A stretch of DNA of 64,000 nucleotides from Candidatus Saccharimonadales bacterium (lineage in GTDB: Bacteria; Patescibacteriota; Saccharimonadia; QS-5-54-17). The DNA is taken from the NCBI GenBank assembly GCA_040903985.1, contig JBBDUI010000002.1:518038-582037 (forward strand). The letters are read 5' to 3'. The position numbers and the translations under genes are program-made. The notes below the pieces were generated by a model, which had not been told where the DNA came from, did not search any database, and saw only the letters and a program-made list of their open reading frames with translations. Position 1 is the stretch's first letter, and every line of letters begins with the position of its first letter. Below are positions 25,947 through 41,142 of this stretch, piece after piece.

Positions 25947-26056
25947 TCATTTATAACTAATCACTTATCTTATTGTATAGGTAAAATCGAGCTTTATAAA
26001 ATCAAGCGGATGTTATAATAAAAGATAGTATGTAAGTAAGGCAGGGAGGGATATTT

Positions 26057-26302
26057 ATGGCTAAACGTGAAGTCGTACGCGAGGTACCGGAAGAGACCCT
26101 AGACCGAGAGACGGTAGTACTGGACAAACGGGAAGGTGGGGGTCCGGGCGGAATCATCGCACTCATCGTCGGCTTGATAGTTTTATCTTTGCTTATCTGG
26201 TTAGTAGTGGGTATGTTCGATACCACTGAAGACACAACTCCGGAGACTACAACTCCGAACAGCATCGAGGCCGATATTAACGCAGGTACGGACGCTCAGT
26301 AG
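26057..26302 (+). CDS. small membrane protein (single TM, acidic flanks)
   Basis: Strong RBS GGGAGGG 7 nt upstream of the ATG; a hydrophobic core IIALIVGLIVLSLLIWLVVGMF. Confidence 0.5.
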   Translation: MAKREVVREVPEETLDRETVVLDKREGGGPGGIIALIVGLIVLSLLIWLVVGMFDTTEDTTPETTTPNSIEADINAGTDAQ

Positions 26303-29605: not shown

Positions 29606-30292
29606 ATGAGTATCAGCCTCAGTAAACTGCCACTTATGGCTTGGAGCGTGACTAGTGGAGCATGTCTATTGGCACTGATAGTGTGGTGGCAGGGGCTGAA
29701 CAATGGACTAGCAAGCATCAATTCATATACCCTTTTCCCTCTGCTCGGCATTCTCGCTTTTAGTATCATGTGGGCGCACTATATTATGAGCGCTGTACGC
29801 CAGATTATGCGAGCAGAGACGGAGGTACTTAAGACCTATTTCGAAATTACCAGCTGGCTAGCACTTATAGCTCTACTACTCCATCCGGGACTACTTGTGT
29901 GGCAGCTATGGCGGGATGGTTTCGGTTTACCCCCAGGTAGTGTGCTAGAGAGCTACGTTGCGCCGACTTTGCGGGGGGTGGTCATTCTCGGAACACTCAG
30001 CCTAGCGGCTTTCTTACTTTATGAGCTGCGACGTATATTTCAGACTATCGGCTGGTGGAGGTGGATACAGTATTTGTCTGATGGTGCGATGCTAGCGGTC
30101 TTATACCATGGCTGGCAGCTCGGTCGGCATCTTCAAAGTGGCTGGTATCGAATGGTATGGATAATGTATGCCATAACGCTTATCGCAGCACTGGGGTATC
30201 GATACAGGGGACTCGTAAAAGAGAAACGGGAGAGTACCCGGAATGACAAGACAGATGATTTGACACATAATAGGCAAAGGAGGCAAGGATGA
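29606..30292 (+). CDS. hypothetical polytopic membrane protein (Trp/His-rich)
   Basis: 228-aa ORF with about 6 hydrophobic segments. It overlaps the next gene by 4 nt (ATGA), suggesting an operon. Confidence 0.5.
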   Translation: MSISLSKLPLMAWSVTSGACLLALIVWWQGLNNGLASINSYTLFPLLGILAFSIMWAHYIMSAVRQIMRAETEVLKTYFEITSWLALIALLLHPGLLVWQLWRDGFGLPPGSVLESYVAPTLRGVVILGTLSLAAFLLYELRRIFQTIGWWRWIQYLSDGAMLAVLYHGWQLGRHLQSGWYRMVWIMYAITLIAALGYRYRGLVKEKRESTRNDKTDDLTHNRQRRQG

Positions 30293-30741
30293 GAGCTAAT
30301 CGTTCATTTATAGTTATCGGACTTATCATATTAATCGCAGTTATAGGGACAGGTTGGTATATCGTATCCCGGGAGTCAGTTGAGACTGAAACTCAAGAGA
30401 ACCGCAGTAGCGAAGAGACCACTCAGCCCACTGAAGGAGCGGCCGATGCAGCGGCGGAGCCAGAGGAGGGAGCTGTAGCGCCAATTGTCTATAGGAATGA
30501 GGGCTTCTCGCCCGCTCAGCTCAGTGCATCGACAGGAACAGAGCTTCTGATACGTAACGAGTCATCTATTAGCTTGCAGTTTAGCTCTGATCCGCATCCT
30601 GCTCATACTGATAATAGGGAGTTGAATGCTAGAGCTATTCAGCCAGGCGAATCAGTGACTATCACAGTTGAAGAAATCGGCCGGTGGGGTTTTCATAATC
30701 ATTTTAGGGAGACACATCGCGGCACGCTCACTGTAGAGTAG
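30289..30741 (+). CDS. membrane-anchored secreted protein, possible cupredoxin-like metal-binding domain
   Basis: N-terminal TM anchor and an acidic linker. C-terminal beta-rich domain with His cluster HPAHTDN...WGFHNHFRETH. Confidence 0.4.
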   Translation: MRANRSFIVIGLIILIAVIGTGWYIVSRESVETETQENRSSEETTQPTEGAADAAAEPEEGAVAPIVYRNEGFSPAQLSASTGTELLIRNESSISLQFSSDPHPAHTDNRELNARAIQPGESVTITVEEIGRWGFHNHFRETHRGTLTVE

Positions 30742-32241: not shown

Positions 32242-33087
32242 GTGGTAGGTATGAGGCAACCATTTACCGCCACCGTAGGAGTTGAGAATCGGGGTCAATA
32301 CCTCGAAATTGCACATGCCGATGTCGACCGACGTTTAGGTGAGATTGCAGTCGGGATACTGATGAGCGAGAAGACAGGACTAGAGAACATATCTAATCGT
32401 CATGGCCTCACGTACCCATTATTTGATGAGGTCGATGAAATTGTAGCGGCTCAGCATGAATACGGAGTGCCAGCGGTGCCACTAATCATTCATTACAACA
32501 CTGACCGACCCGATCAAGCGGGACAACAGTTAGTGGCTGCACTGCACCGACATGAGACGATTGCGGCTGTGCAGGTCAACGGCTTGCAACCTGAGCATTA
32601 CGGAAATCTTGAATTCCTGAAGGCTGCTCGGCCGAAGTTAGATGTTATCGTGCAGATTGATAACTATATGTTACGCAAGTATCGACACCAACCCGACCGT
32701 TTCTATGCGGCCGGTCCTGAATTGCTGGTCGAGGAAGTAACAAAACATGGGGTGATCGATGGTGTATGGCTGGATGGGTCCGGCGGCTGCGGTAAAGAGC
32801 TAGACGTAGATGTCCTTATCCCCTATATCGATGCATTTGCTCGGAAAGGTATCAGTGTCGGTGTGGCGGGTGGTTTGCACGCAGGTAGCGTACATGATCT
32901 ATTACTACCACTACTTAGACGGTACGCAAGTCTAGATAATACACAACCAGCTTCTATCAGCTGGGATGCCCAAAGTGGTGTTATGGATGAGACTAGGAGC
33001 GGGCATCGGTTTAATACTCAAAAAGCTGTTGACTTCCTGTGCAGTTCAAATGCCCTGCGGCGAGAGGTGGATAGTCTGATACAGTAA
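32242..33087 (+). CDS. TrpF-like (phosphoribosylanthranilate isomerase family) TIM-barrel protein with ~80-aa N-terminal extension
   Basis: C-terminal blocks VWLDGSGGCGKELDVDVL and VGVAGGLHAGSV resemble the TrpF signatures (GGtGktfDW / GGLnpeNV). Start GTG 32242 or ATG 32251. Confidence 0.45.
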   Translation: MVGMRQPFTATVGVENRGQYLEIAHADVDRRLGEIAVGILMSEKTGLENISNRHGLTYPLFDEVDEIVAAQHEYGVPAVPLIIHYNTDRPDQAGQQLVAALHRHETIAAVQVNGLQPEHYGNLEFLKAARPKLDVIVQIDNYMLRKYRHQPDRFYAAGPELLVEEVTKHGVIDGVWLDGSGGCGKELDVDVLIPYIDAFARKGISVGVAGGLHAGSVHDLLLPLLRRYASLDNTQPASISWDAQSGVMDETRSGHRFNTQKAVDFLCSSNALRREVDSLIQ

Positions 33088-33091
33088 GAGC

Positions 33092-33895
33092 ATGTTACTC
33101 AAAAGTTCTGAACTAGCGGATTATATTAAAGCTCAGCAGGTTCAAGCCGTGCGTAGCCTGCAGCATACCGGTATCAAGCCTAAGCTCGCTATCGTTCAGG
33201 CGGGTACTATGGTAGTGAGTGATACTTACGTGCGGTTGAAGCAAGCTTATGGCCAAGATATCGGCGTTGAAGTAGAGCGATACGATACGGATACCAGCAA
33301 CCTTGTGGATACGATTCAACGCTTAAACGGCACGGATAGCATTCACGGTATCATCGTGCAGCTACCGCTCCCTGAGAGTATTGATACCGGAGAAGTGTTG
33401 AACCGGATAGACTCGGTAAAAGATGTTGATGGACTCGGTGCAGAAAGTGCGTTTGATCCGGCCACTCCGACGGCGATTCTATGGCTATTGAGTGAGGGTA
33501 ATGTCGAGCTAGATAGTAAAACTATCGGCGTGATTGGTCACGGTCGACTGGTAGGAGCACCTCTAGTACGCATACTAAAGGCATCAGGTCATGAACCCTT
33601 AATTGCTGATAAAGAAACAGGAGATGTGGCTGAGCTGATGAGGGAATGTGATGTTGTCATTACCGCTACCGGGCGGCCCGGGCTGATTACACCTGATATG
33701 GTCCACAGTGGACAGGTTATCATCGATGCCGGCACTAGTAGTGAGGACGGTAGTTTGGTGGGCGATGTCGACTCATCGTTGTATGAGCGTAGCGACTTAA
33801 AAATCAGTCCTGTTCCGGGTGGAGTGGGACCGTTGACGGTGGCGGCACTGTTTGCAAACGTGATTGAGGCGTTTAAGCGGCAAGGGCGCGGCTAA
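33092..33895 (+). CDS. folD: bifunctional methylenetetrahydrofolate dehydrogenase/cyclohydrolase
   Basis: FolD motifs (KPKLAIVQAG..., GIIVQLPLP, VIGHGRLVGAPL, DAGT). Confidence 0.9.
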   Translation: MLLKSSELADYIKAQQVQAVRSLQHTGIKPKLAIVQAGTMVVSDTYVRLKQAYGQDIGVEVERYDTDTSNLVDTIQRLNGTDSIHGIIVQLPLPESIDTGEVLNRIDSVKDVDGLGAESAFDPATPTAILWLLSEGNVELDSKTIGVIGHGRLVGAPLVRILKASGHEPLIADKETGDVAELMRECDVVITATGRPGLITPDMVHSGQVIIDAGTSSEDGSLVGDVDSSLYERSDLKISPVPGGVGPLTVAALFANVIEAFKRQGRG

Positions 33896-34247
33896 CCCGC
33901 TCCGCCACCTGCTTAGGGGTGAGGTCGGCCTTGACGATGAAAGAATCGACACCGAGCTCCCGGATGGCTTTCGGTGCTTCGGCTTCACCCATGTTGGTTA
34001 GGATGATCACCTTGACATCCTTGCCCCAGGACTCAGCGCGCATTTTAGCTAACATCTCAGCCCCATCCATCACCGGCATCATGAGATCGAGGAGTACTAT
34101 ATCTGGCTTGAACTCGCGTACCATCTCGAGCCCCTGTTCGCCATCACCGGCATAGGCAACATCGAAGCCTTCGGCTTCGAACTTCATACGATACATTTGG
34201 ACTATAGCTAAGTCATCTTCGATAAGTGCTATTTTAGTTTTTGCCAT
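33873..34247 (-). CDS. single-domain response regulator (CheY-like receiver)
   Basis: Receiver motifs IALIEDD, phosphoacceptor DLMMP, and a conserved Lys region; no output domain. Confidence 0.8.
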   Translation of the reverse strand: MAKTKIALIEDDLAIVQMYRMKFEAEGFDVAYAGDGEQGLEMVREFKPDIVLLDLMMPVMDGAEMLAKMRAESWGKDVKVIILTNMGEAEAPKAIRELGVDSFIVKADLTPKQVAERVSRALAA

Positions 34248-34404
34248 CGATGCTTATCCTTACTTAAAGCTGTTACTGATTATATCATCAATTATTAATG
34301 GTATTCAGTTAGGGGTTAGTAGCTGTCGACGTTAGATGGTATTTTTGGTATCATCGGTAGTAATAGATCATAATTTTGCCATAATGAAAATTTAATAAAT
34401 AAAT

Positions 34405-35931
34405 ATGTTTTCGTCCCAAAACTCAGGCATCGATATCGATGTACCAAAACTCCAGCGTCGACTTAAAACTAAGCCAGAAGCCTACTGGATGCGCAGGGGG
34501 GAGAGGATGGCATTAGAGCTTTTCCAGGCAATGGCAAAGCGGGTTCCAGCTTATAAAGATTTCTTAGCTAAGAATAATATTGATCCGCGGAAAGTGAAAC
34601 AGGCGGCGGATCTATCAGAAGTAACTCCAGTTGATAAGGATAACTATCTGCGGCAGTATGATCGCGCTCTGTTGTGTTGGGACGGTAGGTTTAAGGAAGA
34701 GAACTGGGTTATATCCTCGACATCAGGTTCGACTGGCCAGCCGTTCTATTTTCCGCGACAGTATGCGCAGGATAAACAATATGCTGATATGGCCGAGCTT
34801 TATTTGCGCGAGAACTTTAAGCTGCAGGATAAAAGTACACTCTACATCGTAGCTTTTCCAATGGGTGCATGGATTGGCGGGGTCTTTACCTATCAAGCGC
34901 TTCAGATAGTGGCGAGTAGAGGCTATGAGTTGAGCATCATTACTCCGGGCGTTCATAAGGGTGAGATAATCAATGCCATTAAAAACCTAGCTGATGATTT
35001 CGATCAAATTATTATCGGTTCATATGGCCCATTTCTCAAAGATATTCTTGATGATGGTGTTCGAGCTGGTATAGATTGGAAGCGATATAATCTCGGTTTT
35101 ATCCTTTCCGCCGAGGTAATCTCTGAGACATTTCGCGATTATATTGCTAAAAAAACCGGTATAGATATCTTGACCGGTAGCCTGAATCACTATGGAACGG
35201 TCGATTTAGGTACGATGGCGCACGAGACCCCAATCTCGATTCTCATGCGCCGACGTGCTGTTGAAAACTCGACACTCTATAACGATATCTTCGGCGATAT
35301 TACTAAGCTCCCGACTTTGGCTCAGTACCTTCCTGAGCTATTCTATTTTGAAACAGCGGGCGGCAATCTCTATTGCTCAGCCAATAGTGGTATACCTTTA
35401 GTACGTTACGACCTCAAAGATCATGGCGGGTTGCTTACTCTGACTGAGATTGACGACCTCTCTCGGCGTTACGATCTCGGCGTTGAGCAGGTGCTTCAAA
35501 CTAGCGGTGCGGCCGACTCGATCTGGAATCTGCCATTTGTGTACGTTTATGAGCGGAGCGATTTTTCTGTCAGTTTCTTCGGTTTTCAGATCTATCCAGA
35601 GACTATCAGACGAGCCCTGCAGAGTGAGGTTTTTGAGTCAGATATTACAGGAAAGTTCACTATGGAGGTGGCCTATAGTGAGGAGGGCCGTCAGCAGCTA
35701 ACTATTCATATCGAACTCATGGCTGAGCGTAGTCCTAGTACAGCGTTGAGACGAGCACTGGAACAAGTACTTGTTAGGCAACTACTAGAAGAAAGCTCTG
35801 AGTATCGGGAGACCCATAAACACTACAAATCAGATGTACGACCGCATGTTAAGTTATGGAACTACGAGCATGACACTTACTTTAAGTCTGGTACGAAACA
35901 GCAATGGATTAAGCGTGAGCCGAAACCGTAG
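34405..35931 (+). CDS. PaaK/F390-synthetase/LuxE-like adenylate-forming enzyme (ANL superfamily)
   Basis: AMP-binding P-loop-like motif ISSTSGSTGQPFYFPR (compare SSGTTGKP of PaaK); 508 aa; AT-rich upstream region. Confidence 0.65.
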   Translation: MFSSQNSGIDIDVPKLQRRLKTKPEAYWMRRGERMALELFQAMAKRVPAYKDFLAKNNIDPRKVKQAADLSEVTPVDKDNYLRQYDRALLCWDGRFKEENWVISSTSGSTGQPFYFPRQYAQDKQYADMAELYLRENFKLQDKSTLYIVAFPMGAWIGGVFTYQALQIVASRGYELSIITPGVHKGEIINAIKNLADDFDQIIIGSYGPFLKDILDDGVRAGIDWKRYNLGFILSAEVISETFRDYIAKKTGIDILTGSLNHYGTVDLGTMAHETPISILMRRRAVENSTLYNDIFGDITKLPTLAQYLPELFYFETAGGNLYCSANSGIPLVRYDLKDHGGLLTLTEIDDLSRRYDLGVEQVLQTSGAADSIWNLPFVYVYERSDFSVSFFGFQIYPETIRRALQSEVFESDITGKFTMEVAYSEEGRQQLTIHIELMAERSPSTALRRALEQVLVRQLLEESSEYRETHKHYKSDVRPHVKLWNYEHDTYFKSGTKQQWIKREPKP

Positions 35932-35994
35932 TATTGAAATTTATATGAAAATACAGTATAATATACATAATATTGCAGGGGTAATAAAAGATCG

Positions 35995-37206
35995 ATGAGT
36001 GATAAAGCGTTTACATTTAGCCATGCAGGAGAACAGATATCTCAGACACTGAAGCGATCGAAATGGAGTCAACCCGACCGGTTTAATCTAGAGAATAAGA
36101 AGGATAAAACTCGGCTACAAGCACTAATCACTTCAGGTGATACCGTGGATATACATGATCAGGTGCAGCTCATTGCTGAGGACCTGTATGATCTAGCGCA
36201 CCCAGAACAAAAAGACAGCAAAGATCCAAATACATACGCTGACTTTATCGCGAATATTACCGCTCAAGGGATGGAGTACGGCGAGTGGTTCTTTTTCCCT
36301 TGGTCGCGGGCACTAGTTCGCTATCCGGAGCGGGAAGATCTTCGCCGTATCCGTACTTCTCGTAATCGTAATTTGATTACGAGCAGCGAACAGGAGCGAC
36401 TTTATGAGGCCACCGTAGCCGTTTTCGGCCTGAGTGTTGGCAGTAATGTAGTTGAGGCGCTGCTCTCGTCTGGTATTGGCGGCAAATTGATTATCGCGGA
36501 CATGGATACCATCGAGCCCTCAAACCTAAATCGTATTCGGGCCGATTTTACCCAGGTAGGTGTGAAAAAACTAGACTATGTGGCTAAGCGCATCAGCATG
36601 ATTGATCCTTATATCGAGCAGGTACATTTACCTGCTGGGTTAACAGCTGAAAATCTCGAAACGGTTGTTACTAATCACCGACCCGATGTCATTATCGACG
36701 AAGTCGATAACTTACCGATAAAAATTCAACTTCGTAAGGTAGCGCAAAAAGAAGGTTTGCCGATCGTTATGGCTACGGATGATGGCGATAATGCCTTGCT
36801 CGATATCGAACGTTATGATCTGGAGAGTATTGAACCTTTTAACGGCCGTATCCCAGCGGAAATCATCGACTCAGTTATAAGTGGTGAGTTTCCGCGAGAG
36901 AAACTGGGTCTAGTAATTGGGAAGTATTTTGTTGGGGTGGAGAACATCCCTCTTAGAATGTTTCAATCACTGCAAGAGGTGGGCAAGACGTTACCTAGTT
37001 GGCCCCAGCTGGGTAATGCTGCTGCTACTGGCGGTACGGCGGCAGCCTTTGCGACTCGTCAGATTATTCTAGATCGCAATTTACCGACCCAGAGGGTGAT
37101 GGTGGACTTCGATAAGCTCATGAATAGTGAGATTCATACCAAAGAGTATCGAAGAGATCTGGCTATGTATCGGGCAATGTTGGAGGATATACCGGTCGTC
37201 TCTTAG
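35995..37206 (+). CDS. E1-like ThiF/MoeB-family adenylyltransferase with ~130-aa N-terminal extension
   Basis: Rossmann nucleotide loop VAVFGLSVGSNVVEALLSSGIGGKLIIADMDTIEPSNLNRI (GxGxxG ... D.D.IE.SNLNR). It has its own TGnTATAAT-like -10 element upstream. Confidence 0.75.
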   Translation: MSDKAFTFSHAGEQISQTLKRSKWSQPDRFNLENKKDKTRLQALITSGDTVDIHDQVQLIAEDLYDLAHPEQKDSKDPNTYADFIANITAQGMEYGEWFFFPWSRALVRYPEREDLRRIRTSRNRNLITSSEQERLYEATVAVFGLSVGSNVVEALLSSGIGGKLIIADMDTIEPSNLNRIRADFTQVGVKKLDYVAKRISMIDPYIEQVHLPAGLTAENLETVVTNHRPDVIIDEVDNLPIKIQLRKVAQKEGLPIVMATDDGDNALLDIERYDLESIEPFNGRIPAEIIDSVISGEFPREKLGLVIGKYFVGVENIPLRMFQSLQEVGKTLPSWPQLGNAAATGGTAAAFATRQIILDRNLPTQRVMVDFDKLMNSEIHTKEYRRDLAMYRAMLEDIPVVS

Positions 37207-37249: not shown

Positions 37250-39370
37250 ATGATACTGTCTATCGTAATTGCCGCTGTACTCGTCCAATGTCTGATTGTA
37301 GCCTTTGTATTGTCGAAAAAAGACAAGGACGGTAGTCACGTCTTGTTTGCTTGCGCGGCGTTTTCCCTGGCGGCATGGGCATTCGCTAACTACCTCTCTA
37401 CCATACTAGTCGGAGATGCCTTGCTTTATGCCATGCGCTCAGTGATGGCTTTAGTGGTAGTGCAAAATACTTTCCTGACTTTATTCTGCTACTTCTATCC
37501 GATAGCTAGAGTTAGACGAATGGGGTGGCGACTCTATATTTACCTAGCATTCTCTCTCATTACTGTTGCCTTAACATTAACTCCTCTGGTTTTTATCGAC
37601 ACGACTTTAGTGAACGGTACACCATATCCTGAGGCTGGACCGGGAATATTAATATTTTTAATCCACGCTGTAAGCTCGGTAATAATTGGTATGGCACAGC
37701 TAGTTAAGCGTCGCCGTCGTTCTGTCGGCTCGGCTCGAGCTCAATTAGCGTTTATTATCTTGGGCGTTGCTTTACTCTGGACTATCGTACCGGTTACTAA
37801 CCTAGTGGTGACCTTGGTGCTTCAAACCACCCTCTTCATCCGGTTGAGCGCAGTATATGTTTTGATTTTCTCCTCAATTATCGCCTATACCATAGTGCGT
37901 CATCGGATGTTCGATATTCGCCTCGTAGTAGCTCGTTCCGTAGCTTATTCATTAGTGATAATCACTATGGGCTTACTGTATGGCTTTGTCGTGTTTGGGG
38001 TGGCAGAACGGCTGTTTCCTTCCTCAAATGCTACCGGACTCCAGCAAGTTTTCTATACACTTGCTGCCGTATTTCTCGCTCTAACTTTCCAGCCGATTAA
38101 ACGTTTATTCGATCGGGTTTCTGATCGAATATTCTATCGTAATCGTTACAGTTCCGAAGATGTACTGAATCGTCTCGGTAAAGTCTTTGTAACCAAAGGT
38201 AATAGCTTCGAGCTGCTCGATGATACACTACAGATTATCGTTTCTGCTCTCCGGGTTGAGTCCGGTCGTTTAATAGTGGTCGATAATAATGAGATATATG
38301 CTACGGCCCATACAGGTGATGGTATCGAAGTAGAAACGACAGCAGCTACACTCTCTCGTTTTCCCCAGCAAATAAATATCCTTGATGAAGCACATAGTTC
38401 TGATGAACAGACGCTCTTGCGTAGCTTGAAGTCCTACACCGTAGTGAGGCTGACGACGCAGAATGATCTTGTCGGCTACCTCCTGTTAGGAGCTAAGCAG
38501 TCCGGCACTATTTATACTCAGCAGGACATTAATTTGCTCGAGATTCTCGCCCAGGAACTGGCCGTGGCCGTGCAGAATGCCAAGAGTTACGAGGAGATTC
38601 AGGCTTTTTCTGAAACCCTGAAGAATGAAGTGGACGAGGCGACTGCCCAGCTCCGCGAGACTAATCAGCGGCTGATAAAACTCGATGAGGCTAAGGACGA
38701 GTTTATCTCGATGGCTTCGCACCAGCTGCGGACACCACTAACTACGATTAAGGGCTATCTATCAATGCTACTGGAAGGTGATGCCGGTAAGCTGACGAAA
38801 AAGCAGACCGACTTTATCGACTTGGCTTTCGTCAGTTCGGAGAGGATGGTGCATCTAATAGCCGACATGCTGAATGTCTCGCGCATCTCCACTGGTCGCT
38901 TAACTATCGATACTATGACGTTCGATCTAGCGGAGGTAGTAAGTAGCGAGATCGATCAGCTTCGCCGTCAGGCCGAAGCTCGAGACGTTAAACTTACTCT
39001 GCATAAATCAGATAAGTCGATTATGGTCAGGCTGGATGAGACCAAGTTACGCCAGGTTATTATGAACTTTACCGATAATGCCATCTATTACGCTCCGGAA
39101 GGGCAGGTTGATATCTACATCGAGCAGCACGACCAGACAGTTGAGTTCCGGGTTAAGGATAACGGCATCGGTGTCTCCGTTGAGGCGCAGAAGCGGCTAT
39201 TTTCGAAGTTTTTCCGAGCCGAAAATGCCCAACACGTCCGTCCCGACGGGACCGGACTGGGCCTCTATATGGCCAAGCAGGTTATTGAAGCTCAGGATGG
39301 GGAGCTGATCTTTGAAAGCACGGAGGGCAAGGGCTCGACCTTCGGCTTTCGCTTTAAGCTAAAAGATTAG
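37250..39370 (+). CDS. sensor histidine kinase with polytopic N-terminal membrane domain
   Basis: About 7 TM helices. H-box SMASHQLRTPLTTIKGY. HATPase N/G boxes (DNGIGV, GTGLGLYMAKQVIEAQDGEL). Confidence 0.85.
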   Translation: MILSIVIAAVLVQCLIVAFVLSKKDKDGSHVLFACAAFSLAAWAFANYLSTILVGDALLYAMRSVMALVVVQNTFLTLFCYFYPIARVRRMGWRLYIYLAFSLITVALTLTPLVFIDTTLVNGTPYPEAGPGILIFLIHAVSSVIIGMAQLVKRRRRSVGSARAQLAFIILGVALLWTIVPVTNLVVTLVLQTTLFIRLSAVYVLIFSSIIAYTIVRHRMFDIRLVVARSVAYSLVIITMGLLYGFVVFGVAERLFPSSNATGLQQVFYTLAAVFLALTFQPIKRLFDRVSDRIFYRNRYSSEDVLNRLGKVFVTKGNSFELLDDTLQIIVSALRVESGRLIVVDNNEIYATAHTGDGIEVETTAATLSRFPQQINILDEAHSSDEQTLLRSLKSYTVVRLTTQNDLVGYLLLGAKQSGTIYTQQDINLLEILAQELAVAVQNAKSYEEIQAFSETLKNEVDEATAQLRETNQRLIKLDEAKDEFISMASHQLRTPLTTIKGYLSMLLEGDAGKLTKKQTDFIDLAFVSSERMVHLIADMLNVSRISTGRLTIDTMTFDLAEVVSSEIDQLRRQAEARDVKLTLHKSDKSIMVRLDETKLRQVIMNFTDNAIYYAPEGQVDIYIEQHDQTVEFRVKDNGIGVSVEAQKRLFSKFFRAENAQHVRPDGTGLGLYMAKQVIEAQDGELIFESTEGKGSTFGFRFKLKD

Positions 39371-39559: not shown

Positions 39560-39573
39560 AGTGGCAGTGTGCT
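39555..39573. promoter_or_regulatory. inverted repeat AGCACA-N7-TGTGCT upstream of umuDC, candidate SOS (LexA-type) operator
   Basis: Perfect 6-bp arms, 32 bp upstream of the umuD start, between divergent genes. Confidence 0.3.
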
Positions 39574-39604
39574 AAATTTAAAATACCAAACAAAGAGCGA
39601 ACAT

Positions 39605-39916
39605 ATGAGCCATCTACCTTTTATGCCCAGTAGCGAAGACGGACTAGCCGAAGTCGCCGAGTCGGTAGCGGACTGGAAGTATCCACTGGATCTGAACCGG
39701 GCGCTATTGCCGCGGCCAGCTAGTACCTTCTTATTGCAGGCCGACAGCAACCGCTACGGTGTGCGCGCTGGAGATACGCTGGTTGTCGACCGGAGCTTGA
39801 TGCCGGCTAAAGGTGACTTAGTGATCGCTATTGAGGAGAGCGAGTTACGGTTGACGAAGTTTCCGGCGGTAGAAGTATGGGGTGTGGTTACTTATATTAT
39901 CCGAGGTTTGCGATGA
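39605..39916 (+). CDS. umuD: UmuD-like S24 peptidase (translesion polymerase V accessory subunit)
   Basis: Aligns to the UmuD C-terminal domain with the Ser/Lys dyad (ADSNRYGVRAGDTLVVD...RLTKF). Overlaps umuC by 4 nt. Confidence 0.7.
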   Translation: MSHLPFMPSSEDGLAEVAESVADWKYPLDLNRALLPRPASTFLLQADSNRYGVRAGDTLVVDRSLMPAKGDLVIAIEESELRLTKFPAVEVWGVVTYIIRGLR

Positions 39917-41142
39917 TAGCTTTGGTTGACTGTAATAACTTTTTCGTGAGTTGTGAGCGAGTCTTCGATCCTGGTCTAGTGTCTCGTCCGGTAGCGGTGC
40001 TATCCAGTAACGATGGCTGTATCGTAGCTCGATCGAACGAGGTGAAGGATCTCGGGGTGACTATGGGCGCACCGGCTTTTAAGTACAAGGAGCTGCTGGT
40101 TCGACACCGGGTGGTACTAAAGTCGTCCAACTTCGCGCTTTATAGCGATATGTCACGCCGGGTGATGGCTACTCTGCGTGAGTACACGCCAGAAGTAGAG
40201 ATATACTCGGTCGACGAGGCCTTTTTGCCTTTAGCGGGTGAGCAGGGTTATTTAGAGTGGGCTCAGGAGCTGAGAGACAAGGTAGGGCGCGATACTGGTA
40301 TCCCGGTCAGTGTCGGAGTAGCTAGCACCCGAACACTGGCTAAGGCGGCGGCTACTTTATCAAAACGTCGGAGTGGGGTATTAAGTTTCGCTGATTTGTC
40401 CGAGTCGGAGGTGGATGACTATTTGCGCGACCTACCGGTCGGGGATGTCTGGGGCATCGGACGCAAACTCAATCGGACGCTGCAGGCTTATCAGGTCCGT
40501 ACGGCCTACGGCTTGCGCGAGCTACCAGAAGGTGTTCTAAGCCAGCTCAGTGTATCCGTGCGCCGCACAGTTCAAGAGTTACGTGGGGAGGCAGCAGCGG
40601 CTCATAAAGCCGCTCGACCTAAGAGTATGGTTAGCACCCGCTCCTTCAGTAGTCCGATTGTGGAGTTAGCGGAGGTACGAGAAGCGCTCAGCTCCCATGC
40701 CGCTACACTGGCAGCTAAACTGCGCCGTGAGGACATGACCACCCGTACGTTATCTGCCTTCATCGCTACCGGTGCGTATGAGGGCTACCGGAAAGCTAGT
40801 TTAAATCTAGCCATCCCGACAAGTAGCACAAGTGAGCTAGTCCGCGCGGCTGGTGAGTTGGCCGAGCAGGTTTATCGCTCGGGTTTGCGTTATAAGAAGG
40901 CTGGTGTGATGGCGTATGAGTTGGTACCGATAGAAGCGCGGCAGCTAGCTCTAGACAGTGCGTTAGATGAGATCAAGGCGGGGGAGAAAATAGATAGCGC
41001 TCTAGATACTATCAACCGACGTTGGGGTCCACATGCCTTACAAGTAGCGGCCGAGGGTTGGAATCAAAGCTGGCAGCCCAGACACGCTCTACGTTCACCA
41101 CGCTACACCACGGAGTGGGATGAGCTGAAGTTAGTAGGTTAG
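39913..41142 (+). CDS. umuC: Y-family DNA polymerase UmuC (Pol V catalytic subunit)
   Basis: N-terminus MIALVDCNNFFVSCERVFDP and motif SVDEAFL typical of UmuC/DinB. Confidence 0.85.
   Translation: MIALVDCNNFFVSCERVFDPGLVSRPVAVLSSNDGCIVARSNEVKDLGVTMGAPAFKYKELLVRHRVVLKSSNFALYSDMSRRVMATLREYTPEVEIYSVDEAFLPLAGEQGYLEWAQELRDKVGRDTGIPVSVGVASTRTLAKAAATLSKRRSGVLSFADLSESEVDDYLRDLPVGDVWGIGRKLNRTLQAYQVRTAYGLRELPEGVLSQLSVSVRRTVQELRGEAAAAHKAARPKSMVSTRSFSSPIVELAEVREALSSHAATLAAKLRREDMTTRTLSAFIATGAYEGYRKASLNLAIPTSSTSELVRAAGELAEQVYRSGLRYKKAGVMAYELVPIEARQLALDSALDEIKAGEKIDSALDTINRRWGPHALQVAAEGWNQSWQPRHALRSPRYTTEWDELKLVG

Follow-up and report, generated by a model that had tools for sequence, protein, structure and literature searches.

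A PaaK-like ligase and a ThiF-like cyclase beside a sensor kinase: a candidate oxazolone-type pathway in Candidate Phyla Radiation bacteria

Results

Two adenylate-forming enzymes flanked by two-component genes

The subject of this analysis is a stretch of 64,000 nucleotides from Candidatus Saccharimonadales bacterium (assembly GCA_040903985.1, contig JBBDUI010000002.1; hereafter the window) and, within it, two adjacent genes, A and B, that lie between the genes for a response regulator and a sensor histidine kinase (Table 1). An earlier reading made from the sequence alone (the sequence-only reading) had seen in this pair a possible small-molecule, peptide or protein conjugation module that matched no nameable system. 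Both open reading frames (ORFs) are intact in the window and have the lengths and motifs that had been described, and the flanks are likewise as described, with a receiver-only response regulator on the opposite strand and a seven-transmembrane (7TM) histidine kinase. Only 43 nt separate B from the kinase gene, and the flanking genes, a HisKA and HATPase_c kinase and a receiver-domain partner, make up a two-component system. As set out below, the evidence favours the small-molecule option. On balance, and with modest confidence, we interpret A and B from their sequence relationships as the central part of a small-molecule pathway of the oxazolone (azlactone) type, with OxzAB, TyzABC and TrzAS as its relatives. 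That ThiF-like enzymes make oxazolones has been known only since 2021. Our comparisons draw on 124 related loci, referred to by L numbers where needed: 44 from species-representative genomes, centred on B, and 80 metagenomic loci centred on A. Both families are large, with more than 1,700 matches each in homolog searches.

Table 1. The A/B genes, their spacers and the flanking two-component genes, with positions in the window.
Feature	Position	Strand	Remarks
Response regulator	33873..34247	-	124 aa, receiver-only (PF00072 at 5.4e-22), no output domain; divergent from gene A
Spacer between response regulator and A	34248..34404		157 nt, 29% GC; AT-rich divergent promoter region
Gene A	34405..35931	+	508 aa; divergent PaaK-family (ANL) adenylate-forming ligase; motif SSTSGSTGQP
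Spacer between A and B	35932..35994	+	63 nt, 22% GC; near-consensus promoter-like site
Gene B	35995..37206	+	403 aa; TrzS/Rv1355c-type ThiF-like cyclase; GLSVGS...DMDTIEPSNLNRI; no flavin mononucleotide (FMN) oxidase half
Sensor histidine kinase	37250..39370	+	706 aa; Pfam domains HisKA_7TM, GAF, HisKA and HATPase_c

The regions upstream of A and B had been called AT-rich in a way unlike the rest of the window, with strong -10 boxes, and this holds in part. Among the 31 intergenic regions (median GC 43%, compared with 50% for the whole window), the A-B spacer ranks first and the spacer upstream of A third in AT-richness, and the former contains a sigma-70-type site, TTGAAA-17-TATAAT at 35934-35962, that matches the consensus at 11 of 12 positions. 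The total number of promoter-like sites in the region, on the other hand, is not in excess of that in shuffled sequences (7 vs. 9.3 +/- 2.9), and this site is the only notable one; those upstream of A, at 34326-34354 and 34345-34374, are weak, with 9 of 12 matches each. The A-B spacer is not conserved, with A and B overlapping by ~4 nt in several relatives (L054, L086 and L096; tblastn coordinates), and the putative internal promoter is therefore specific to the lineage of the window. A further AT-rich stretch, at 25947..26056, has a GC content of 26-30% in 100-nt windows, comparable to the regions upstream of A and B. It lies within and next to the gap at 25947-26001, which separates two minus-strand ORFs, and extends into the ORFs 26002..26265 (-) and 26057..26302 (+), so that AT-rich putative promoter spacers are not unique to the A and B genes.

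Gene B resembles the cyclase half of TrzS

In a scan of NCBIfam, the best-matching family of B by a wide margin is NF005901, the 'Rv1355c family' (E = 3e-80, 270 bits). Residues 22-380 align with profile positions 8-343 of 722, a match that spans both the N-terminal domain and the ThiF domain. Rv1355c is TrzS, a ThiF-like cyclase and FMN oxidase that makes N-acyl tryptazolones (JBC 2025, PMC12856293), and B can thus be connected to a named system after all. The score of B is below the equivalog cutoff of 476 bits, and only the cyclase half of this two-domain model is covered. Relatives in which B is fused to an oxidase (see below) score 351-382 bits, also below the cutoff, compared with 840 bits for plasmid-encoded Rv1355c proteins. 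To the cyclase half of one plasmid Rv1355c-family protein with the latter score, B is 36% identical over 287 aa (E = 7e-51), and its adenylation motifs align with those of an Rv1355c-family protein. Judged by these scores, B is a sister group of the Rv1355c family and not an equivalog.

The AlphaFold model of B (predicted local distance difference test score, pLDDT, 89.9) has an E1/ThiF-type adenylation fold, and its Foldseek neighbours in the PDB are AclA (9egb), ThiF, MoeB, TcdA, MccB and PaaA. The sequence-only reading had placed extensions of ~130 aa and ~150 aa on either side of a Rossmann core. An N-terminal domain of ~115 aa is indeed present; it has the helix-strand order H-E-H-E-H-H-E-E in the model and is common to the Rv1355c family. 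The C-terminal part, by contrast, is mostly the second half of a normal E1 fold, with ~260 residues of the model aligning with ThiF/MoeB (template modelling (TM) score on the target 0.74-0.80), even though PF00899 matches just residues 122-260 (3.4e-23; the first 141 of 238 model positions). In an alignment of 26 sequences, R123, N124, R125, G145, S147, G149, S150, D169, D171, N177, R180, K192, D235, E236 and D238 are invariant in the B family. The ATP- and Mg-binding motifs are therewith intact, including the TrzS D217-type catalytic aspartate; D238 is presumably the counterpart of the catalytic Asp of MoeB and ThiF. The best structural neighbour is AclA of Tenacibaculum discolor (9egb/9egc/9egd; E = 8.9e-14, target TM 0.80), a ThiF-type structure of 2025 described as 'in complex with substrate'. 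Literature searches did not find a function for AclA; should its substrate be a small molecule, AclA may serve as the best template for B.

The E1 fold had also suggested ubiquitin-like and peptide-directed roles, in which B would adenylate the C-terminus of a protein or peptide, in the manner of E1/Cap2/Bil or of MccB/PaaA, and A would add a second modification. The PADLOC E1-E2 models do match B (best 9.6e-13), MccB and PaaA are found by Foldseek (E about 1e-9), and B resembles MccB in having an extra N-terminal domain. The PADLOC matches are, however, confined to the Rossmann core, and the N-terminal domain is shared with Rv1355c/TrzS, the substrate of which is a small molecule. There is neither a conserved cysteine nor a CxxC zinc motif in the 26-sequence alignment. 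As the sequence-only reading had noted for the immediate neighbourhood, no E2 or ubiquitin-like protein (Ubl) gene is present in the window or the 124 related loci, and the same goes for JAB genes. The small ORFs for a Ubl or precursor peptide that it had proposed to look for in homologous loci did not turn up either: a search of 123 related loci for conserved small ORFs returned only antisense shadows of coding sequence. The window spacers (157, 63 and 43 nt) contain no credible small ORF, the first of them having just antisense ORFs of 22 and 43 aa that extend over the beginning of A. Finally, the fusion partners of B are an FMN oxidase or the protein Z described below, never E2-like or peptide-processing domains. 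B therefore lacks the catalytic Cys and partner genes of the E1-E2/Ubl systems (Bil, CBASS Cap2, 6A-MBL) as well as the small ORF expected for an MccB/PaaA-type enzyme of ribosomally synthesised and post-translationally modified peptides, and we regard conjugation of either kind as very improbable.

Least probable among the functions considered here is a role in RNA modification, as a dehydratase of the TcdA kind (cyclic t6A synthesis), or in the activation of a sulfur carrier, as for MoeB and ThiF. Sequence-profile comparison does place TcdA nearest to B among solved structures (4.4e-16), TcdA also forms an oxazolone-type ring according to the literature, and some homologs at JGI are named 'tRNA threonylcarbamoyladenosine dehydratase' or 'molybdopterin/thiamine biosynthesis adenylyltransferase'. 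Against this, the ThiF, MoeB and TcdA models give B only 44-70 bits, with cutoffs of 152-377, and cover just residues ~128-264, far less than the Rv1355c model does. The zinc motif is missing, the loci contain no ThiS/MoaD-like small gene, and the consistent partners of B are A or Z and an FMN oxidase. B, by its profile scores, belongs neither with the MoeB/ThiF enzymes nor with the activators of ubiquitin-like proteins, in agreement with the earlier view that the pair is not part of MoeB/ThiF housekeeping.

Gene A is a very divergent member of the PaaK family

A has no match in Pfam, including the AMP-binding, LuxE and GH3 families, and in NCBIfam it gives only weak N-terminal matches to FlxY, F390 synthetase and PaaK (E = 4e-6 to 3e-4), far below the cutoffs. 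For the PaaK equivalog TIGR02155, the score is 19.7 bits (E = 2.6e-4, N-terminal part only) with a cutoff of 646 bits. Since a sequence search of the PDB also returned nothing significant (PaaK, E = 0.47), the fold was established through an AlphaFold model (pLDDT 84.2). PaaK1 is the top Foldseek match (2y27/2y4n; E = 2.5e-20, TM 0.67-0.81), followed by BT_0428 and then by NatL2, AjiA1 and ClxA. The model has the PaaK-type two-domain ANL fold, and residues that are invariant in the A family comprise the P-loop T106-S-G-S-T-G111-x-P113, Y263-G-T265, D339, G496 and K498; we take the P-loop and the C-terminal catalytic lysine to be present on the basis of general ANL knowledge. Going by the model, A is clearly a very divergent PaaK-family ANL enzyme with intact adenylation motifs, and because of this fold and the invariant motifs it is predicted to form an acyl-adenylate. 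Of the earlier label, the PaaK/ANL part stands whereas 'LuxE-like' does not. In place of a paa catabolic context, the neighbours of A are the response regulator, B and the kinase.

A and B occur together, with recurrent partner genes

The co-occurrence of the pair, which had been proposed as a check on its significance, is close to complete. B is present in 75 of the 80 A-centred loci and the other five are truncated by contig ends, so that every evaluable locus with A also has B. The order is AB in 61 loci and BA in 14, and in 65 the two genes lie within 350 nt of each other. Together with the folds and motifs, this bears out the suggestion that A and B are a functional pair of adenylate-forming enzymes.

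In the B-centred set, loci from the Candidate Phyla Radiation (CPR) have the layout FolD .. response regulator (-) .. module .. kinase (+), and the module is of two types. Type I (25-26 loci) has A and B in either order, usually an aminotransferase (X) and often an oxidoreductase (Y). In type II (11 loci), A, X and Y are absent and an unannotated protein of 260-380 aa (Z) is encoded directly beside B. Every CPR locus of this set has B with A or B with Z, none having both or neither, and Z is absent from all 80 A-centred loci. One locus with A, B and Y (L089) comes from Candidatus Roizmanbacteria, and the module is therefore not confined to Saccharibacteria. The window itself has the minimal form, consisting of the response regulator, A, B and the kinase: tblastn and family hidden Markov models (HMMs; E<=10) detect none of X, Y, Z or a dehydrogenase (V, see below) in its 64 kb.

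Y is an Acg/Rv3131-type FMN oxidoreductase (188-229 bits with the Acg-family model) that also matches profile positions 369-650 of the Rv1355c model, i.e. the oxidase part, and B plus Y therefore correspond to a split TrzS. It is present in 52 of the 80 A-type loci, on the same strand as A in 41 and usually after B. In L051, L052, L059 and L089, B and Y are fused into one ORF of ~720-770 aa with the TrzS architecture, aligning with positions 13-645 of the Rv1355c model. Thus a nitroreductase-superfamily FMN oxidase (FDO) that is adjacent or fused to the cyclase, although missing from the window, does occur in the wider family; it is absent from all 11 Z-type CPR loci. X is a class I/II aminotransferase (PF00155) encoded on the strand of the response regulator. 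V, a Glu/Leu/Phe/Val-type (ELFV) amino acid dehydrogenase (PF00208/PF02812), is often located just upstream of A where X is absent, and takes the place of X in 17 loci. The presence of X or V suggests that a transaminase or dehydrogenase feeds the pathway via interconversion of amino acids and 2-oxo acids. In five loci (L056:10613-11509, L089, L107, L112 and L113) an alpha/beta-hydrolase (PF00561) is encoded between Y and the kinase and, by analogy with lactonases, this enzyme could hydrolyse or turn over the oxazolone or the N-acyl product.

The Z family has 356 representatives in an exhaustive search; a word-indexed homolog search with the Z profile gave 9 proteins, all unannotated. Among the best 150 of the 356, 14 are fused to a B-type domain (12 Z-B and 2 B-Z) and none to A, Y, X or V. 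In L033 and L035, Z and B form a single 690-aa protein. Z also lies beside B in metagenome-assembled genomes of Actinomycetes and Acidobacteria (L032, L037 and L039). Stand-alone B-type cyclases of ~400 aa, without an oxidase half, and Z proteins are seen in Actinomycetota as well (L032, L034, L039 and L040, including the isolates Hoyosella rhizosphaerae and Nocardioides malaquae), L037 being the locus from Acidobacteria. In a neighbour-joining tree of B without support values, the stand-alone B proteins of these five loci are located inside the clade of CPR Z-type B (CPR loci L019-L041). Since Actinomycetota are the known hosts of Saccharibacteria, genes may have passed between host and epibiont. 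Two plasmid loci deserve separate mention. A clear Z-family member on Mycobacterium ulcerans BS123 plasmid unnamed2 (L045:4995-5846; hhalign probability 100%, E = 1.9e-41; annotated as hypothetical) has no B-type gene beside it and adjoins integrase fragments, and may be an orphan or part of a decayed cluster. On a plasmid of Streptomyces sp. NBC_01431 (L047:5164-8078), a 622-aa protein has a B-type C-terminal half (260 bits with the B HMM, 397 bits with NF005901) and an N-terminal half with weak matches to GNAT (E = 0.004) and FeeM (E = 0.036); a beta-ketoacyl-acyl carrier protein (ACP) synthase III gene follows with a 4-nt overlap. From its sequence, L047 looks like another uncharacterised oxazolone-type cluster architecture.

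The module is invariably linked to a histidine kinase in CPR genomes

The association with the flanking two-component genes was assessed in those 48 loci in which the sequence extends 4.5 kb or more beyond the module in both directions. A histidine kinase is encoded within 4 kb of the module in 44 of them, which are all of the evaluable CPR loci (44/44), and 40 of the 44 kinases match the 7TM N-terminus of the window kinase. The four loci without a kinase are exactly those from Actinomycetes. A response regulator lies near the module in 34 of the 48, and in most Saccharibacteria loci a homolog of the window protein (58-68% identity) occupies the same relative position. The earlier idea that the pair is tied to the adjacent two-component genes is therefore well borne out. 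The kinase linkage holds in two CPR classes, Saccharibacteria and Roizmanbacteria, and in three arrangements. In the first, the response regulator and X on the minus strand are followed by A, B, optionally Y on the minus strand, and the kinase on the plus strand; in the second, all genes are on one strand, in the order [V], A, B, Y, [hydrolase], kinase and response regulator, with those in brackets optional; in the third, the regulator on the minus strand is followed by Z, B and the kinase. Persistence of the linkage across three arrangements makes simple inherited synteny unlikely. Signalling genes are also found beside the relatives of B in Actinomycetota, where Rv1355c-family genes adjoin GGDEF genes on Rhodococcus plasmids and trzAS adjoins genes for cyclic di-GMP (c-di-GMP) turnover in Mycobacterium tuberculosis (PMC12856293). 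This is a parallel association.

These data also address the question whether A and B might have separate functions, A being an aryl- or acyl-coenzyme A (CoA) ligase that, like BT_0428-type enzymes, serves amino acid catabolism or energy conservation alongside the aminotransferase or dehydrogenase, and B an unrelated protein kept nearby by conserved gene order. The closest structures to A, PaaK1 and BT_0428, are indeed acyl-CoA ligases, X and V are ordinary enzymes of amino acid and 2-oxo acid metabolism, and the order FolD, response regulator, kinase is strongly syntenic in Saccharibacteria. Yet the linkage survives shuffling of the order (AB or BA, Y on either strand, the response regulator upstream on the minus or downstream on the plus strand) and is found outside the FolD synteny, in Roizmanbacteria. 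A does not occur without B in evaluable loci, the two genes overlap by ~4 nt in several of them, and the strict alternation of A and Z beside B would be unexpected for unrelated genes. In addition, neither 2-oxoacid:ferredoxin oxidoreductase nor paa catabolic genes are among the recurring neighbours. We consider separate functions unlikely.

A proposed route to an oxazolone

The characterised relatives provide a framework for what A and B, read as an oxazolone-type pathway, might do. Biochemical work on TrzS, TyzB and OxzB has established the ATP-dependent cyclisation of N-acyl amino acids by these enzymes (PMC12856293; PMC10404671; bioRxiv 10.1101/2020.06.11.147165). Together with the N-acyltransferase TrzA (Rv1356c), TrzS converts tryptophan and short acyl-CoAs into N-acyl tryptazolones; its cyclisation step requires ATP and the conserved Asp of the adenylation motif and precedes O2-dependent desaturation (PMC12856293). 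TyzABC and OxzAB yield tyrazolones (PMC10404671) and phenazolones (bioRxiv 10.1101/2020.06.11.147165), respectively. In the module, A would first adenylate a carboxylic acid and couple it to the amino group of an amino acid to give an N-acyl amino acid, replacing the acyl-CoA/ACP-dependent GNAT acyltransferase of known systems. B would then, by homology to the characterised enzymes, adenylate the alpha-carboxylate of this product, and attack by the amide oxygen would close the 5(4H)-oxazolone ring with release of AMP. In relatives, an Acg/TyzC-type FMN oxidase, Y, would desaturate the ring substituent, a step that is not encoded in the window, and the aminotransferase X or the dehydrogenase V would feed the route. 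Unless the genome encodes an oxidase outside the window, the route would thus end here at the N-acyl amino acid or at its oxazolone, which would be saturated and prone to hydrolysis. Going by these homologies, the module is most likely a stripped-down version of the pathway from acyl amino acids to oxazolones, one in which a ligase that uses ATP stands in for the customary acyltransferase.

TrzAS (Rv1356c-Rv1355c; M. tuberculosis, M. smegmatis and Rhodococcus jostii) is the nearest comparison. B is the closest relative of the TrzS cyclase half including its N-terminal domain, in CPR relatives the FMN oxidase half lies next to the cyclase or is fused to it, in the same order, the substrate would come from an upstream gene on the same strand, and signal-transduction genes are nearby (c-di-GMP genes for TrzAS, kinase and response regulator in the window). 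The differences are the missing oxidase half, a score below the equivalog cutoff, the CPR host and, above all, the upstream partner, a PaaK-family ATP-dependent ligase rather than the acyl-CoA-dependent N-acyltransferase TrzA; no FeeM/LuxI-like N-acyl amino acid synthase of the OxzA/TyzA/TrzA kind is encoded beside B in the window. TyzABC (Rv2336-Rv2338c) and OxzAB (Pseudoalteromonas rubra) follow the same sequence of N-acyl amino acid formation, ThiF-like, ATP-dependent cyclisation and desaturation by a nitroreductase-superfamily FMN enzyme, and their split (Tyz) and fused (Oxz) arrangements are both seen in CPR loci. They too use FeeM/LuxI-like acyltransferases with acyl-CoA, and TyzB and OxzB belong to a different ThiF subcluster than TrzS in the network of the TrzAS authors (PMC12856293).

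For the step proposed for A, there are precedents within its own family. NatL2 and AjiA1 (benzoxazole) and ClxA (closoxazole) are PaaK-family ligases that condense their substrates without CoA (PMC7204872, PMC12519233), and NatL2 and ClxA pass the acyl-adenylate directly to a hydroxyl or amine nucleophile (PMC7204872, PMC12519233), the same chemistry as suggested here. Foldseek places all three near A (E = 9e-16 to 2e-13), but with an identity of only 14-15%, and they act on aminohydroxybenzoates in polyketide-like clusters without a ThiF-like partner. Moreover, the CoA ligase PaaK1 is a slightly better structural match to A than these three, and the fold therefore does not discriminate between CoA ligation and direct condensation.

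The same enzymes could also serve another end. A saturated oxazolone might act as a reactive acyl donor on a cellular or host target, such as an amine of the envelope, a lipid or a protein, or the pathway might stop at an N-acyl amino acid lipid, with the kinase merely having a regulatory role. The lack of an oxidase in the window and in all 11 Z-type CPR loci would fit this, as would the hydrolase encoded in five loci. Saturated 5(4H)-oxazolones are electrophilic and labile; the hydrolysis and alcoholysis described in the literature concern tryptazolones and tyrazolones. Planctomycete ThiF/nitroreductase clusters, furthermore, yield N-acyl dehydrotyrosines with no oxazolone observed (stieleriacine paper). 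On the other side, the loci contain no candidate acceptor or transferase, and a 7TM receptor-type kinase that is always paired with the module accords no less well with sensing. We regard a different end use as improbable, though worth keeping in mind. For the oxazolone-type route itself, gene linkage points to a functional coupling of the product to the 7TM-GAF kinase and the receiver-only regulator, most likely in the form of a self-made signal with the kinase as its sensor.

Other features of the window

Three further regions stand apart from the module. Downstream of the kinase, 39877..41142 (+) encodes a UmuC-type Y-family polymerase (IMS, IMS_C, DUF4113), the start of which is overlapped by 40 nt by a 115-aa ORF (39569..39916, +) without a Pfam match; judged by its position, this ORF is probably a truncated UmuD/LexA-like partner. 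Directly upstream of folD is a 281-aa ORF (32242..33087, +) with no Pfam family. Finally, a 228-aa multi-pass membrane ORF without a family overlaps a 150-aa cupredoxin-like protein (PF13473) by 4 nt (29606..30741, +).

Discussion

Three features are new here: a PaaK-like ligase stands where the known systems have an acyltransferase, the hosts are CPR bacteria, and the module is always linked to a kinase in evaluable CPR loci. Database labels for members of the A and B families are at present 'hypothetical', 'phenylacetate-CoA ligase' or 'ThiF family', and the analysis gives both families a probable function. Literature searches found no link between CPR, Saccharibacteria or Patescibacteria and oxazolones, nor between a PaaK-type ligase or a two-component system and oxz, tyz or trz clusters. 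A ligase, an aminotransferase, an amino acid dehydrogenase and a two-component system go unmentioned in the TrzAS and stieleriacine papers, as does a ligase, the sole term checked there, in the Tyz paper.

The role of the products is described by the TrzAS authors as 'a major unresolved question', and they point out that N-acyl oxazolones resemble acyl-homoserine lactones (PMC12856293). A tentative extension of our interpretation, and one that we consider rather doubtful at present, is a CPR-wide autoinducer-like cassette, in which the product of A and B, with Y in many lineages, would be an N-acyl oxazolone or N-acyl amino acid that is sensed by the 7TM-GAF kinase and relayed via the receiver-only regulator. 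As in LuxI/LuxR and Agr cassettes, synthase genes in the module adjoin genes for signal perception, here a membrane sensor kinase and a response regulator. The module differs from LuxI/LuxR and AgrBDCA in that it has no homologous protein, the regulator lacks an output domain and sensing of the product by the kinase is only putative. The same chemistry could carry signalling between epibiont and host, or eavesdropping, because Actinomycetota use the closest homologs of B to produce related tryptazolones, and CPR and Actinomycetes Z-type B proteins group together in the tree.

CPR bacteria have very little biosynthetic capacity and, to our knowledge, generally lack fatty-acid metabolism, which would make the exchange of an acyltransferase for a ligase a plausible adaptation. 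The CPR hosts of the pathway, Saccharibacteria and Roizmanbacteria, have genomes of about 1 Mb, and the module is strongly conserved in them. In genomes of this size and with so little biosynthesis, a small-molecule pathway that is retained likely matters for the CPR lifestyle. With a kinase coupled to the module in 44 of 44 evaluable CPR loci, the notion of oxazolones as possible signals becomes a synthase-receptor hypothesis that can be tested directly; if the autoinducer-like cassette proves true, it would provide the first defined function and the first receptor for oxazolones.

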